A stretch of DNA of 64,000 nt from Candidatus Latescibacterota bacterium. Its GTDB lineage: Bacteria > Krumholzibacteriota > Krumholzibacteriia > WVZY01 > JAKEHA01. The stretch covers positions 1,280,001 through 1,344,000 of the forward strand of contig OY970173.1 in the NCBI GenBank assembly GCA_963707635.1, written 5' to 3'. Each line of letters opens with the position of its first letter. The first letter of the stretch is position 1. A model generated the notes under the pieces. That model was not told the DNA's origin. It saw only the letters and a list, made by a program, of their open reading frames with translations, and did not search any database. Made by a program: the position numbers and the translations under genes. This document shows, one piece after another, positions 42,943 through 48,306 of the stretch.

Positions 42943-43398
42943 GTGACAGAGGGGAACCTGGAGAGACTTCTCTCTCGGCGCTGGCCCTACGCCGAAGCCG
43001 ACCCCGCTGCCGTGACAGAGCTGGGCCGTCGCGTGGCCGAAGTGGGGCGCCGACAGGGCCTGATTCACTATTCAGACCTCGTGAGTGGTCTCGTCCTGCG
43101 CATGCCTAATGTTGACTCTGGGTCTCCGTTCGAGCTGGGCGTGCCCGAATGGCGAGACCTCGATCGCAACATTCTCGGCGACCTACTGGGGCGGTTGTCC
43201 CTGGAGAGCTACGCCAGGGGCGGATTTCTCGCTACGGCCCTCGTCACATCGAAGGAAACGCGGGAGCCGAGCGAGGGGTTCTGGAACCTGGTCACGGAAC
43301 TGGGACTGTTGAAATCCAGCAGTCAGAACCGCCGGCTGGTATTCTGGAGCGCGCAGGTTCGTTTTGCCTATGACTGGTATGCCGGCAATTCATGGTAG
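42943..43398 (+). CDS. Hypothetical protein (winged-helix-like)
   Basis: IHYSDL...LG..LG....ALV.SK...PSEGFW pattern; more A/T-ending codons than the neighbours. Confidence 0.65.
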   Translation: MTEGNLERLLSRRWPYAEADPAAVTELGRRVAEVGRRQGLIHYSDLVSGLVLRMPNVDSGSPFELGVPEWRDLDRNILGDLLGRLSLESYARGGFLATALVTSKETREPSEGFWNLVTELGLLKSSSQNRRLVFWSAQVRFAYDWYAGNSW

Positions 43399-43401
43399 GG
43401 C

Positions 43402-44091
43402 GTGGAGCCCATGCCCCTCCTGATCTCTGTCAAGCTCGCCATCTACGACACCCTGGCGACGACCACCCACGCTCCAACCGTCTTTGACATCGCGCAGAAA
43501 CTCAACGCCCCGATCGAAGACGTCCAATCTGCCTTCGACGAGCTACACAAGAAACGCCTCCTCGTTCCCGAGCCTGGCGACCCCACTCGCATCCGGATGG
43601 CTCCGCCGTTCTCGGGTGTCGAGACGCCGTTTCGCGTGACCATCGGCGACAAGGTCTACTACGCCCCTTGCGCGTGGGACTCGCTGGGCATTCCGGTCGC
43701 CCTTCATGCGGATGGTGTAATCGAGACAACAGACGGGCACACGGGAAAGCCGATTACTCTCATGGTCCAAAACGGCGCGCCGGTGCCGGAGCCGTGCGTC
43801 ATCCACATCGCCGTGCCCGCCGCGCACTGGTGGGACGACATCATCTACACATGAGCGACGATGCTGCTCTTCCGGTCGGAAGAGACGGTGGGTGCGTGGT
43901 GCAACGCGCGGAGACTTCCGAAGCGGCCGTTCGTGAGCCTGGACCAGGTGTGGGTGCTGGCGCGCGAGTGGTACGAGAACCGCCTCACGGTCGACTCGCG
44001 CCGGCCGGGGCCGGACGAAATGGTCGAGATCTTGTCAAGGATCGACCTGACGGGCCCGTTCTGGGACCCGAAGTCGGATCGATGGGGATAG
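43402..44091 (+). CDS. MerB-like organometallic lyase, probable selenoprotein (in-frame TGA at 43852-43854)
   Basis: N-terminal HTH, MAPPFS, YAPCAWD (catalytic Cys/Asp), WWDDIIYT-TGA-ATMLLFRSEE; the frame continues without shift to TAG 44091; hairpin 12 nt after the TGA. Confidence 0.8.
43862..43890 (+). promoter_or_regulatory. Candidate bacterial SECIS element
   Basis: CTCTTCC-GGTC-GGAAGAG (43867-43884) with a G-initiated apical loop, plus a wobble lower stem TGCTG/CGGTG. Confidence 0.68.
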
Positions 44092-44156
44092 AAGTGTGTG
44101 GTAGATGACAGGTGCACTCGGATATCCTTGTCGATGCTTTGAAAGAGGAGGTTCCA

Positions 44157-44660
44157 ATGAAGCGCTATTTCGTATTGTCGATGGTTCTGATGGCTGCGTT
44201 GTCCGGTTGCGCCAAGAAGGCGGACATCGAGGCGGAACGCACCGCACTTCGGCAGGCCGATGCGGACTGGGCGAAGACGGTGGCCGAGAAGAACGCGGAC
44301 GCATTCACGGGCTACTTCACGGCAGACGGCGTCGTCATGGCTCCGAACCTGCCGGCCGTCAGCGGGACGGACGCGATTCATGCGTGGGTCTCCGCGAACA
44401 TGGCGTTGCCGGGATTCGCGGTGACGTGGGAGGCCACATCGGCGGAAGTCGCGGCATCGGGAGATATCGGCTACACGCTGGGCAACTTCACGTTCCAGAT
44501 GTCGATGCCGGACGGGTCTCCGCTCAATGATCACGGCAAGTACGCGACCATCTGGAAGAAGCAGGCCGACGGGACCTGGAAGATCGCCGCCGACATCTTC
44601 AACTCGGAGATCCCGATGACGGCGATGCCGAGTGACACGACGGCGGTCCAGGGGCAGTAG
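44157..44660 (+). CDS. NTF2-like (DUF4440/SnoaL) lipoprotein
   Basis: Lipobox LSGC; SGDIGYT, GKYATIWKKQADGTWKI..D motifs; SD GAGGAGG. Confidence 0.88.
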   Translation: MKRYFVLSMVLMAALSGCAKKADIEAERTALRQADADWAKTVAEKNADAFTGYFTADGVVMAPNLPAVSGTDAIHAWVSANMALPGFAVTWEATSAEVAASGDIGYTLGNFTFQMSMPDGSPLNDHGKYATIWKKQADGTWKIAADIFNSEIPMTAMPSDTTAVQGQ

Positions 44661-44820
44661 TTTGTCCTGGCTGAAAGACCCGGCGAAATAGAAGACGACG
44701 GCGATTCTTCGCCAAACGCCGTCATGCGGCGGCGTAAGACAAGAGCTTTGGGGCTTGTGCCGCCGAGTCGCCCGGGTATACGCTTCTCACTGCGCCAGAA
44801 GTCAACGGGCGTCGGTGGCC

Positions 44821-47800
44821 ATGCTGACACAATCCCGGAGCAAGCCGCCTCCCAGGCTCCTGCGGTTGTTCCTCCTCGGCCTGGGAGCAGCGGCCATTCA
44901 AGTCGGATCCGCACCGGTTCCGGCTCTCGCCCAGGGCGCGAGCATCGGGATCTACAGCGACCAATCGGGTAACATCTGCAGTTTCTCCGGGAACAGCCCC
45001 GGGACATTCACCGCGTACATCGTCTGTCGTCCGAACGTGAACGGAGTCACGGCCGTCGAGTTTGCGGCCCCGCCGCCGTCGTGCCTCGGGGCCGTGATCG
45101 AGGAAGAGATTCTCCCGATCGGGGCGCTGGCGATTGGCTCGGTGGAGACGGGCATTTCGATCGTCCTCCCGCAATGCTCGATGCTCCCGACCACGGTGCT
45201 CAAGGTCATCTACTCGCGCACCGGCTCGACGACGCCGTGCTGCGAGTATCCGATCGTGGCCGATTTGGTGCCCGGTGTTTTGTCCACCGTGGATTGTGCG
45301 GGAGTCGAGGTATCGACTTCCGGCGTGGTGAGCCATTTCAACGCCGACGCTTCCTGCCCTTGTGCCGGCAATAGCCAGCCGTCCATGCCGGACAATCCGA
45401 TGCCGAACGACTTGGCCGTCGGGCTAAGCGTGATGTCGAGCATGAGCTGGACCGGGTCGGACATCGATGGCAACCTCGCGGAATTTGATCTCTACCTGGG
45501 GACGAGTTCCTCTCCGCCGCTCGTCGCGGCCGGCCTCACGCAGCCCGGCTACACTCCACCTTCTCCGCTCGAGCCGCTGACGCGCTATTACTGGCGCGTG
45601 GTCGCGCGCGACGCGCTCGGGCTCGAGACGTCGGGTTTCATATGGACCTTCACCACGCGGCTGGTCAACTCGCCACCGGGCTCTCCACGGCCCCTGGACC
45701 CATTGAACGGGGCGCAGGCAGTGCCGCTGGACGTCATTGTCAGGTGGATGGCTGCAGACATCGATGACGACCCGCTCGTGTTCGACCTGTATTTCGGGAC
45801 GTCGCCGACACCTCCCCTCGTTGCCACGGACTTCGCCTTGACCGAGTATTCGCCCGGCCAGCTGAGCTACGAAACCACGTATTACTGGCGCGTGGTCGCC
45901 CGCGATCCGCTGGGTCAGGAGACGTCAGGCCCGGTGTGGAGCTTTGTCACGCGACCTGTCAACTTTCCGCCGGACCCACCGGAGAACGTGTCGCCATACA
46001 GCGGGGCGAACAATCAGCCGGTGACGGTCACCCTGACGTGGTCGGCGACCGATGCGGATAACGATACGCTGGTGTTCGACGTTTATCTTGGAACGGTCGT
46101 TCCACCGCCACTCGCAGCGACCGGCGTCAACACCAAGTACTATTCCCCCGGCGTTCTCGCCTTCGGAACGAAGTACTACTGGCGGATCGTGGCGCGCGAT
46201 GGTCACGGCGGTGCTACCTCCGGCACTACCACGTCGTTCACCACGCGACCGGAGAATTATCCGCCGACGGCGCCGTCGAATCCGGTGCCCGCCAATGGAG
46301 CGACGAATCAGCTGGTGACGACCACGCTCGCGTGGCAGTCCAGCGATCCCGACGGCCACGCGATCACCTACGACGTGTACTTCGGAACGACGTCACCACC
46401 GCCGCTGATCGCGAGCAACGTCACCACGAAGACGTACGCGCCGGGGCTGCTCGCGTTTGCGACGACGTACCGCTGGAAGATCGTGGCGCGGGATGAGCTT
46501 GGCGCCACGACCTCGGGCTCGATCTGGAGCTTCAGCACGAGAGTGGCGAACTATCCGCCGAGCGCACCGTCGAGTCCTTCGCCTGCCAACAACGCGACGA
46601 ACAGGCCGGTGACGACCACGCTGGGGTGGCAGTGCAGCGACTCGGACGGCGACGCGATCACCTACGACGTGTACTTCGGCACGGCGTCACCCCCGCCGCT
46701 GGTGGCGAGCAACGTCGCGACGAAGGCGTACGCGCCGGGGCCGCTCGCGTTCGCGACGACGTACCGGTGGAAGATTGTCGCGCGGGATGCGCCTGGCGCC
46801 GAGACCTCGGGCCCGATCTGGAGCTTCACCACCAAAGCCAATTCCGCACCGACTGCGCCGTCGAACCCGAACCCGCCGAACAACAGCGCGTCGCTGCTTT
46901 CGCCGACGCTCTCATGGACGTCGACGGATGTCGACGGACAGCCGCTGACACACAGCGTCTACTTTGGCACAACCTCGGCTCCGCCGATGGTTGCATCGGG
47001 ACTCACGGCGCCCAGCTACACGCCCGGCACCCTGGAGGCCACCGTGCAGTATTTCTGGCGGGTAGTGGTTTCCGACGGCGTACTGTCGACGAGCGGCCCG
47101 ACGTGGAAGTTCACCGCCTTTCGACCGGGAGACGTCGATGCGGACGGCGTGATTACCCTCGCCGACGCCTCGTGCGCTCTAAAGCTCTTCGTCGGGACCG
47201 GCGATTGCGCCGCCGGGGGCGGTGCGGTCGCCGCCGATATCAACTGCAGTGGGTTCGTCACCCCGCGCGACGCGCGATGCATCCACAAACACGTCCTAAA
47301 CGGGTCCTGCACGTTCTGCGGAGAATCCGGAGAGGAGCCTGCCTCCGCTGCATCGACCCCGCTGGTCACTGCCGGTCCGGTGTGGGAGAGCGATGACACC
47401 CTGAATGTGAGCCTGTTCGTGGCGGGCGTTCCCTCACTGGAGTCATTCGGTTTCAATCTGATCCACGATCCTACGGCGCGGCTGGTGGGGCTCGTTCGGC
47501 GAAGTGTCACCACCGCCTTCGAGGCGATGGAGGTGGGCGTGGAGGTCGCGTGGGAACCCATCTGGATAGGTGGTTATACGCTCGGGGGCGTGCCGGCTGT
47601 TTCCACAGTCGAACTCGTTCGACTGCGCTTCGTGATCGACTCCGGTAATGGCGGCAGTGTGCTCGTCAGAGACTTCGTCGACGACCTGGAGGGCGCGAAT
47701 CCGTTGTTTGTTGTGTTGGGAGGTGGCGGGTCAGTTCCCGTGTTGTTTACGCGCTTCGACGCCGTGCTCGAGGATGGCGGCGTCGACGTGCGCTGGGAGC

Positions 47801-48306
47801 TGACGAACGACGAAGCGATGGAGAGCTTCGCTCTTTATCGCCGCGAAGGTGCCGCTCCACTCGCAGACGTGATTGCGCAGGGGCCGGTCAATACCGGCGC
47901 GGGGTCGTACCTCGATCGTTCGGCCGGGGCCGGAAAGACGTATCGCTACGAGATGCTGGTCCAAACGCAGGATGGGGACGCGTTCCGCTCACCGGTTGCC
48001 ACGGTGACGACGCCGGCGAGCTCGCTCGTGCTCGGGCAGAACCATCCCAACCCGTTCAATCCCCAGACAACGATTCCTTACGAGCTGCCGAGCACGGCGC
48101 AGGCGGTGCATGCACGGCTCGTGATCCTGGATACCGCCGGCCGGGTCGTGCGAACGCTGGTCGATGAGGACCAGGCAGGTGGTTCGCGCGAGGCGGTGTG
48201 GAACGGCCGGAACGATGCCGGCGGCACCGTCTCGAGCGGCGTCTATTTCTATGTGCTGGACGCGGGCGGGGAGCGTAGAACGCGGAAGCTCGTCCTGCTA
48301 AAGTAA
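44821..48306 (+). CDS. Secreted protein: six Fn3-like repeats, dockerin-like module, FlgD-Ig/T9SS type A-like C-terminal domain
   Basis: Signal peptide; six ~98-aa units (..DVYFGT..PP...Y.W..VARD...W.F.T); GDVDADGVITLADA / ADINCSG..TPRDA; QNHPNPFNP...SGVYFY...RKLVLLK. Confidence 0.88.
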   Translation: MLTQSRSKPPPRLLRLFLLGLGAAAIQVGSAPVPALAQGASIGIYSDQSGNICSFSGNSPGTFTAYIVCRPNVNGVTAVEFAAPPPSCLGAVIEEEILPIGALAIGSVETGISIVLPQCSMLPTTVLKVIYSRTGSTTPCCEYPIVADLVPGVLSTVDCAGVEVSTSGVVSHFNADASCPCAGNSQPSMPDNPMPNDLAVGLSVMSSMSWTGSDIDGNLAEFDLYLGTSSSPPLVAAGLTQPGYTPPSPLEPLTRYYWRVVARDALGLETSGFIWTFTTRLVNSPPGSPRPLDPLNGAQAVPLDVIVRWMAADIDDDPLVFDLYFGTSPTPPLVATDFALTEYSPGQLSYETTYYWRVVARDPLGQETSGPVWSFVTRPVNFPPDPPENVSPYSGANNQPVTVTLTWSATDADNDTLVFDVYLGTVVPPPLAATGVNTKYYSPGVLAFGTKYYWRIVARDGHGGATSGTTTSFTTRPENYPPTAPSNPVPANGATNQLVTTTLAWQSSDPDGHAITYDVYFGTTSPPPLIASNVTTKTYAPGLLAFATTYRWKIVARDELGATTSGSIWSFSTRVANYPPSAPSSPSPANNATNRPVTTTLGWQCSDSDGDAITYDVYFGTASPPPLVASNVATKAYAPGPLAFATTYRWKIVARDAPGAETSGPIWSFTTKANSAPTAPSNPNPPNNSASLLSPTLSWTSTDVDGQPLTHSVYFGTTSAPPMVASGLTAPSYTPGTLEATVQYFWRVVVSDGVLSTSGPTWKFTAFRPGDVDADGVITLADASCALKLFVGTGDCAAGGGAVAADINCSGFVTPRDARCIHKHVLNGSCTFCGESGEEPASAASTPLVTAGPVWESDDTLNVSLFVAGVPSLESFGFNLIHDPTARLVGLVRRSVTTAFEAMEVGVEVAWEPIWIGGYTLGGVPAVSTVELVRLRFVIDSGNGGSVLVRDFVDDLEGANPLFVVLGGGGSVPVLFTRFDAVLEDGGVDVRWELTNDEAMESFALYRREGAAPLADVIAQGPVNTGAGSYLDRSAGAGKTYRYEMLVQTQDGDAFRSPVATVTTPASSLVLGQNHPNPFNPQTTIPYELPSTAQAVHARLVILDTAGRVVRTLVDEDQAGGSREAVWNGRNDAGGTVSSGVYFYVLDAGGERRTRKLVLLK

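Follow-up and report, generated by a model that had tools for sequence, protein, structure and literature searches.

In the window, by which we mean the whole 64,000-nt stretch of DNA that was analysed, two adjacent forward-strand ORFs appear to form one gene, in which an in-frame TGA is very probably read as selenocysteine (Sec), judging by its conservation and that of the hairpin behind it. The product, 226 residues long and modelled with a MerB fold, would probably act as a stand-alone metal–carbon lyase.

A single gene across an in-frame TGA

ORFs 43402–43854 and 43861–44091 share one frame and are separated by a single TGA; the junction reads TGA GCG ACG ATG, with the translation WWDDIIYT*ATMLLFRSEE, as the initial annotation had described (Table 1). 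That annotation proposed one 229-aa protein; the single read-through frame bears out the one protein, probably of slightly shorter length. Among the 120 closest database homologues, 93 carry 147 residues ahead of the stop, which makes ATG 43411 a likelier start than GTG 43402. Residues are numbered here from ATG 43411 (C87, D90 and U148; C90, D93 and U151 from GTG 43402). In line with the expectation that gene callers would split the gene, 119 of the closest 120 database proteins end at the TGA codon.

The genome is a single contig (96 % complete, 66 % GC), and this is its only MerB locus. A promoter and terminator scan at the locus found none, and none were expected; composition around the gene revealed no island edge. 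The gene is patchy within its genus, with matches in 7/16 other genomes. Assembly or sequencing error was rejected, as public run X2, which possibly shares its campaign with the window, has a 121-nt contig that crosses the TGA with zero differences, and each of the same-genus matches that reach the site (6/6) has one TGA there. Relatives and the X2 contig therefore carry TGA and not the TGC or TGT that had been named as a sign of error or recent mutation.

Table 1. Features of the locus and its neighbours, in window coordinates
Feature	Position	Strand	Basis or remarks
MerB-fold protein gene (predicted)	43411..44091	+	Single gene, 226 aa (229 aa from GTG 43402), one TGA read through, stop TAG
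N-terminal winged-helix-like domain	43411..43602	+	Residues ~1–64; LexA/IdeR-type matches, Z 7–9
Cys87, MerB Cys96 equivalent	43669..43671	+	Alignment to MerB chains; invariant 67/67
Asp90, MerB Asp99 equivalent (proton donor in MerB)	43678..43680	+	Alignment; invariant 67/67
In-frame TGA, putative Sec148 (TU motif), MerB Cys159 column	43852..43854	+	Alignment; TGA in 80/80 related loci
Putative bacterial SECIS	43867..43884	+	7-bp stem, GGUC loop; extendable to 43863–43889; fold, synonymous freeze, pairing
Cys164, extra cysteine, not at a MerB catalytic column	43900..43902	+	Cys in 80/80 loci; T/S/C/A in Cys sister clade
151-aa ORF ending 3 nt before GTG	42943..43398	+	No Pfam/NCBIfam match at E 0.1; no counterpart next to the gene in kin
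DUF4440/SnoaL-like protein	44112..44660	+	Lipoprotein-like start
1183-aa ORF	44755..48306	+	About six internal repeats; C-terminal domain of secreted-protein type

Conservation of the TGA and its cysteine counterparts

Scanning with just the N-terminal 147 residues retrieved 352 relatives, the best 80 of which were fetched. In these loci (79 genomes, 12 named phyla), the column is TGA in 80/80 and never TAA or TAG; without the unpublished genomes G013, G031 and G056, the count is 77/77. Acidobacteriota (26), Gemmatimonadota (13), Chloroflexota (10), Verrucomicrobiota (9) and Planctomycetota (6) contribute most loci, and five are unlabelled. The residue before the TGA is Thr in 79 and Ala in one, an ATG stands at +3 in all 80, and the frame continues for 74–88 codons past the TGA in 76; of the four loci without a full second half, two lie at contig ends and two have early stops. 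Kinship inflates all conservation and co-occurrence counts given here. In loci L011 and L034 (L128), the TGA and hairpin are kept but the frame ends after a further 14 and 36 codons, which probably reflects frameshifts or assembly errors. In the consulted part of their preprint, Haft and Gwadz ask of a selenoprotein family that TGA be present in 100 % of at least ten examples and that homology run through the site (bioRxiv 10.1101/2022.07.06.499078); both are found here, with TGA in all of the best 80 of 352 relatives. A recent nonsense mutation was rejected on the same count across 12 named phyla.

Among the best 150 representatives at 50 % identity, 66 end exactly at the column (as protein records, these do not carry the identity of the stop codon), 55 are full length and 29 are fragments or other forms. 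The initial annotation had reasoned that Trp or another non-Cys residue in homologues would count against Sec; the full-length representatives have Cys in 48 cases, Trp in two, another residue in four and a gap in one, and a Cys sister clade has Cys at the column in 120/120. Full-length database proteins P0254 and P0256, with Trp at the column, are possibly cases of TGA translated under code 4 by the gene caller. Cys and stop forms interleave on a tree built from the N-terminal part (115 rows, few columns), with 11 changes, only three to four of which are forced by strong branches. A search around G045 aimed at Cys forms returned mostly TGA forms.

It is very improbable that the TGA is a real stop, whether in a split gene that is conserved and restarts at ATG 43861, or through a nonsense mutation, or that it is a Trp codon. 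The invariant ATG at +3, the two Trp-bearing representatives and the 147-aa form listed in databases would agree with one or other of these readings; however, the codon is always TGA, and a split gene would delete a catalytic residue. Met at +3 is also found in 120/120 proteins of the Cys clade, which identifies the conserved ATG as coding for an ordinary residue and not as a restart, and it is missing from some TGA loci in which the hairpin persists (L170 and the two-Sec forms described below are examples); on these grounds, the split gene with a restart was rejected. A code with TGA as Trp was likewise rejected, as TGA is the commonest stop of the genome (462 of 956 long frames).

A frameshifted, degraded copy with TGA at the column and a broken hairpin is present on plasmid 1 of the cultured organism Rubrobacter radiotolerans (L157:2000–2400), where it is annotated as a 90-aa merB.

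A hairpin downstream of the TGA

The stem CTCTTCC (43867–43873), loop GGTC (43874–43877) and stem GGAAGAG (43878–43884) were confirmed as first described; the stem begins 12 nt after the TGA, and the distance to the loop is 19 nt. The consulted part of a recent selenoprotein review gives as constraints for bacterial SECIS elements a loop of 3–9 nt, a stem of 4–16 bp, G within the first two loop nucleotides, a distance of 16–37 nt from the UGA and a minimum free energy of at most −7.5 kcal/mol (PMC13188914); the hairpin has a loop of 4, a stem of 7, GG, 19 nt and −15.0 kcal/mol. This energy, for 31 nt, corresponds to a z of −3.59 (0/200 shuffles as good), but the signal fades to weak or non-significant values once the folded stretch, counted from the UGA, is lengthened (49 nt, z −1.83, 9/200; 79 nt, z −0.37; 109 nt, z +1.21). 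A generic G-loop hairpin follows 4694 of the 69,478 TGA triplets in the genome (6.8 %); an exact GGTC loop with a stem of at least six pairs follows 14. As generic hairpins are common after TGA and long windows fold weakly, the fold alone is weak evidence, and the claim rests on conservation. An Rfam scan of 43300–44200 returned no match at E ≤ 10.

Codons F+6, R+7 and S+8 are each represented by one codon in 75/76 sequences, whereas neighbouring conserved V, P, A and T columns draw on four. Across 66 distinct TGA contexts, a set that includes 13 from distant two-Sec relatives and leaves out SaoL and L108, 96.1 % of cells are paired (50–65 % in slid controls), with two-sided changes in 3/7 pairs, one of which is a compensatory change that converts Arg to Trp; the outermost pair is broken in 16/66. 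The covariation score was reached by 0/500 shuffles, a test that relatedness inflates. In Cys-form genes (n=4), the hairpin is absent (2–4 of 7 pairs, no GGTC). The hairpin is thus, to judge by its synonymous freeze, its compensatory pairs and its absence from the four Cys-form genes, under selection as RNA, which answers the initial annotation's call for a check of its conservation in relatives. Locus L083 keeps the TGA and has a different loop.

Selenocysteine machinery

A genome lacking the Sec machinery would have spoken against the reading, and the search for selA, selB, selC and selD suggested by the initial annotation found all of them: selA, selB and selD score over their cut-offs and a tRNA-Sec is present. 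Together with the invariant TGA and the conserved hairpin, this supports the original claim that the TGA encodes Sec. The SelD of the genome (G000:C1:1039917–1040846) has one TGA itself, reads ACAG-TGA-ASK and has a G-loop hairpin in the same register, suggesting that it is likely a selenoprotein too. A motif scan of the genome for further selenoproteins was swamped by chance matches.

Among the 79 genomes with TGA-form loci (the three unpublished ones included), selB scores over the cut-off in 69, and SelA is found in the remaining 10/10. A phylum sample of 301 genomes around G032 has selB in 17, the two TGA-form genomes included (one of them by design, as the sample centre), and its one Cys-form genome returned no selB match. 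In the window's own class, selB is near-universal (59/61 genomes), so co-occurrence says little there.

MerB fold and catalytic columns

Read through, the protein scores 99.3 bits against Pfam MerB (PF03243; gathering cut-off 27) and covers the model from 1 to 126 of 126, while its halves score 61.3 and 18.4. A structure model built from 67 read-through sequences has a pLDDT of 96.1. With this model, the best Foldseek match was MerB2 (5c17, E 2.8e-11), all 11/11 matches at E ≤ 0.001 were MerB chains, and the top match of a wide VIA-align search was again MerB2 (Z 18.7, rmsd 3.4, 187 aligned). Residues 1–64 match LexA, IdeR and MntR domains and give weak HTH Pfam hits (E 0.03–0.09), which could indicate a metal-sensing DNA-binding protein with a winged helix and a MerB-type sensor. 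We regard this as highly unlikely: the predicted matches to solved MerB span residues 1–193 and so already include the winged-helix-like domain, and no target gene recurs beside the gene.

Cys96, Asp99 and Cys159 are described as the essential MerB residues, with Cys96 and Cys159 binding R-Hg and Asp99 protonating the carbon (PMC10114901, consulted part). The CAWD motif had been read as Cys96 and Asp99, and alignment places Cys87 and Asp90 there; Asp is also found at the Asp99 column in 64/66 representatives truncated at the TGA column. The proposal that the TGA occupies the Cys159-equivalent site likewise held, since it aligns with the Cys preceding Ser in the MerB C160S chain and homologues have Cys there. 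Asp108 aligns with MerB Cys117, a column that is Asp in 33/67 and Cys in 34/67 sequences. A canonical MerB signature, as given in the consulted part of PMC8261052, includes Cys159 and Cys117; the window protein has TGA and Asp at these positions and retains Cys96 and Asp99.

The large Cys-only sister clade (L102 in G099, P0122–P0241, L156 on a Ralstonia megaplasmid and L177) has a CxWC motif. In 120/120 of its proteins, Cys replaces the catalytic Asp99, giving three cysteines at the metal site, and the wider group may for this reason do other chemistry.

Relationship to SaoL and curated MerB

In the consulted part of its description, SaoL is a MerB-like selenoprotein of anaerobes with Sec at the Cys159 column, a CU motif and a nine-gene operon (bioRxiv 10.1101/2022.07.06.499078). 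It shares with the window protein the MerB fold, the Cys96 and Asp99 equivalents, the putative Sec at the Cys159 column and the shortening in databases. However, the window protein has TU for CU and scores 39.2 bits against the SaoL model NF040728 (cut-off 140; true SaoL 174.9), the best of 67 family members reaches E 4.7e-16 against 1.1e-51 for true SaoL, and identity to true SaoL is 27 % over 127 aa. On the tree, the two lie on opposite sides of a 100/99 branch, and a joint clade was rejected (p-AU 0.0066; a 33-row tree with one SaoL sequence and long branches, run after a quick tree had been seen). The nine-gene SAO neighbourhood is absent beside the window gene; a SaoC model gave no match in the genome, with the control likewise silent. 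Hosts of the TU branch are mostly the five phyla that contribute most loci, whereas SaoL is reported, in the source consulted, only from anaerobes.

With MerB (EC 4.99.1.2; PF03243, NF033555, NF009710; PDB 3F0O, 3F2F, 1S6L; MerB2 5C17), the modelled protein shares the fold (TM 0.56–0.65, Z 14.4–18.7), the CxWD motif and the third ligand column. Identity to characterised MerB is about 20–26 %, and scores fall short of the curated cut-offs (35.3 vs 200 bits for NF033555 and 45.8 vs 193 bits for NF009710). The window protein further differs in its putative Sec for Cys159, the lack of a Cys160, Asp at the Cys117 column and ~30 extra C-terminal residues past the aligned range, and no mer operon or MerA was found for it. 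Long-form Cys proteins annotated as ‘alkylmercury lyase family’ (P0242, P0122, P0193; Ralstonia, Flavobacterium) have the same 220–235-aa architecture with a WxD/NxxxTC motif and lie on the same side of the tree, but have Cys for the TGA and no hairpin; some have Cys at the Asp99 column. Our searches found no characterised member among them.

By these comparisons, the TU family is a separate large branch that belongs to neither SaoL nor curated MerB. Sec at the Cys159 column is already known from SaoL, and the TU branch is, on sequence grounds, new beside it. The initial annotation was thus right that MerB-related selenoproteins had been reported, but the novelty it placed in lineage and context lies in a separate large branch and not in SaoL found elsewhere. 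NCBIfam 20.0 holds no curated model for the branch, and no paper on it was found in the literature searched, outside which most subscription journals lay. SaoL is the only MerB-like entry in a 119-family selenoprotein table of 2026 (PMC13188914 Table 1), from which the TU branch, as a large selenoprotein group, appears to be absent; BSepDB member lists and the SaoL paper supplements lay outside this comparison, and some members may be filed under SaoL. A term search of the consulted text of PMC13326102 (including its supplement) and PMC12013277 found no mention of MerB.

Genomic context and proposed function

The gene is flanked by an Asn-tRNA ligase-type gene, an ORF of no known family and a DUF4440 protein, and no flank family recurs in more than 6/81 loci. 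DUF4440-like genes, sometimes paired, flank the gene in the same-genus loci L098 and L101, and relatives of the 1183-aa ORF do so in a few loci. The statement that no mer operon surrounds the gene holds well beyond the window: of the 141 nearest ORFs of 77 loci, 74 have Pfam hits, which are scattered and never mer-related, and 67 have no Pfam hit. No metal transporter, regulator or reductase partner recurs in the flanks of the loci examined.

MerA was sought in 80 genomes (76 of the 79 locus genomes, the window's own and three kin); none scored over the cut-off, with at most 17 candidates scored per genome and many genomes incomplete, and 2/14 controls passed. The best match in the window's genome reached 370.6 against 454.45 bits. 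A terminal Cys pair is a mark of MerA, and C-terminal cysteines are absent in this match and in 7/8 top loci. The genome returned no MerT match and no HgcA-model match. The examined genomes offer no link between the gene and mercury; cases of MerB lacking a MerA partner are also on record (PMC8261052, consulted part).

We propose that the gene is an accessory, solitary scavenger outside any mer or SAO operon, and that its product would work in three steps. SelB would, with near certainty, bind the GGUC hairpin and bring Sec-tRNA to the UGA. By analogy with MerB, the Cys87 thiolate and Sec148 selenolate would then hold an R-metal cation, R-Hg+ being the likeliest, while Asp90 would protonate the carbon with release of RH, a step that we consider fairly likely as a whole. 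Last, and only tentatively, the metal might stay on the S/Se ligands or go to cell thiols, unreduced, since no MerA was found. It is doubtful, though conceivable, that this amounts to MerA-independent methylmercury demethylation in soil and sediment bacteria, in which a selenolate MerB would cleave trace organomercury and mercury would end up locked on selenium. Very tight Hg–Se binding could block turnover.

The missing MerA would also suit a selenoprotein that traps or chaperones a metal or metalloid (Hg, Cu, As, Sb), binding it without cleaving a carbon bond, as would the best structural match to MerB2, since MerB variants bind other metals and the activity of MerB2 is much reduced (PMC8261052 and PMC10114901, consulted parts). 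Yet 67/67 family members and nearly all truncated representatives have Asp at the proton-donor column, and the lack of a recurring transporter or regulator is likewise at odds with a trap, which we consider unlikely. We give still less credence to a redox or C–S/C–Se cleaving centre formed by Cys87 and Sec148, perhaps with Cys164, and acting on a non-metal substrate. To our knowledge, no redox activity has been described for the MerB fold, the clear fold matches are MerB chains only and no reductase partner recurs nearby; set against this are the extra invariant Cys164, relatives with Sec at both catalytic columns, the solitary, mer-free contexts and the view that most bacterial selenoproteins are redox enzymes (PMC13188914, consulted part).

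On the preferred reading, a likely metal–carbon lyase has been overlooked because databases shorten a widespread family at its TGA. According to the consulted parts of PMC12484752 and PMC8261052, merB surveys use standard gene calling and then require Cys96, Asp99 and Cys159; they would discard the TU family, as standard calling cuts at the TGA and Cys159 is required. If methylmercury is cleaved, the genetic potential for demethylation would be undercounted, and a MerB role without MerA would gain a testable case. Should that reading be true, the family, SaoL and the two-Sec relatives together would show that selenium was brought into the MerB metal site more than once. The effect of selenium at a mercury-binding site could be tested directly by comparing the Cys, one-Sec and two-Sec forms that occur naturally.

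Further relatives with putative Sec

A SaoL search also yielded MerB-fold proteins in which the Cys96 column and the Cys159 column both carry TGA, at 21 of the 25 loci fetched (L107, L109, L110, L112–L127, L129 and L130). They lie in 20 of the 301 genomes of a phylum sample centred on G025, the locus of which bears the title Thermodesulfobacteriota. The two tested reach no NCBIfam cut-off, and 14 wider regions revealed no strongly conserved neighbour. Their motifs are AA-U-AxD or GQ-U-xxE, and U-xxxxF-F[RW]SE, with a hairpin after each TGA in most, and they form two separate groups on the tree.

Single-TGA forms at L108:1852–1896 and L111 (RAYT-U-PL and ARSL-U-RK, respectively), with a different hairpin in L108, branch among canonical mer-type MerB proteins, a placement that suggests Sec has been put to use at the Cys159 column in other cases as well.
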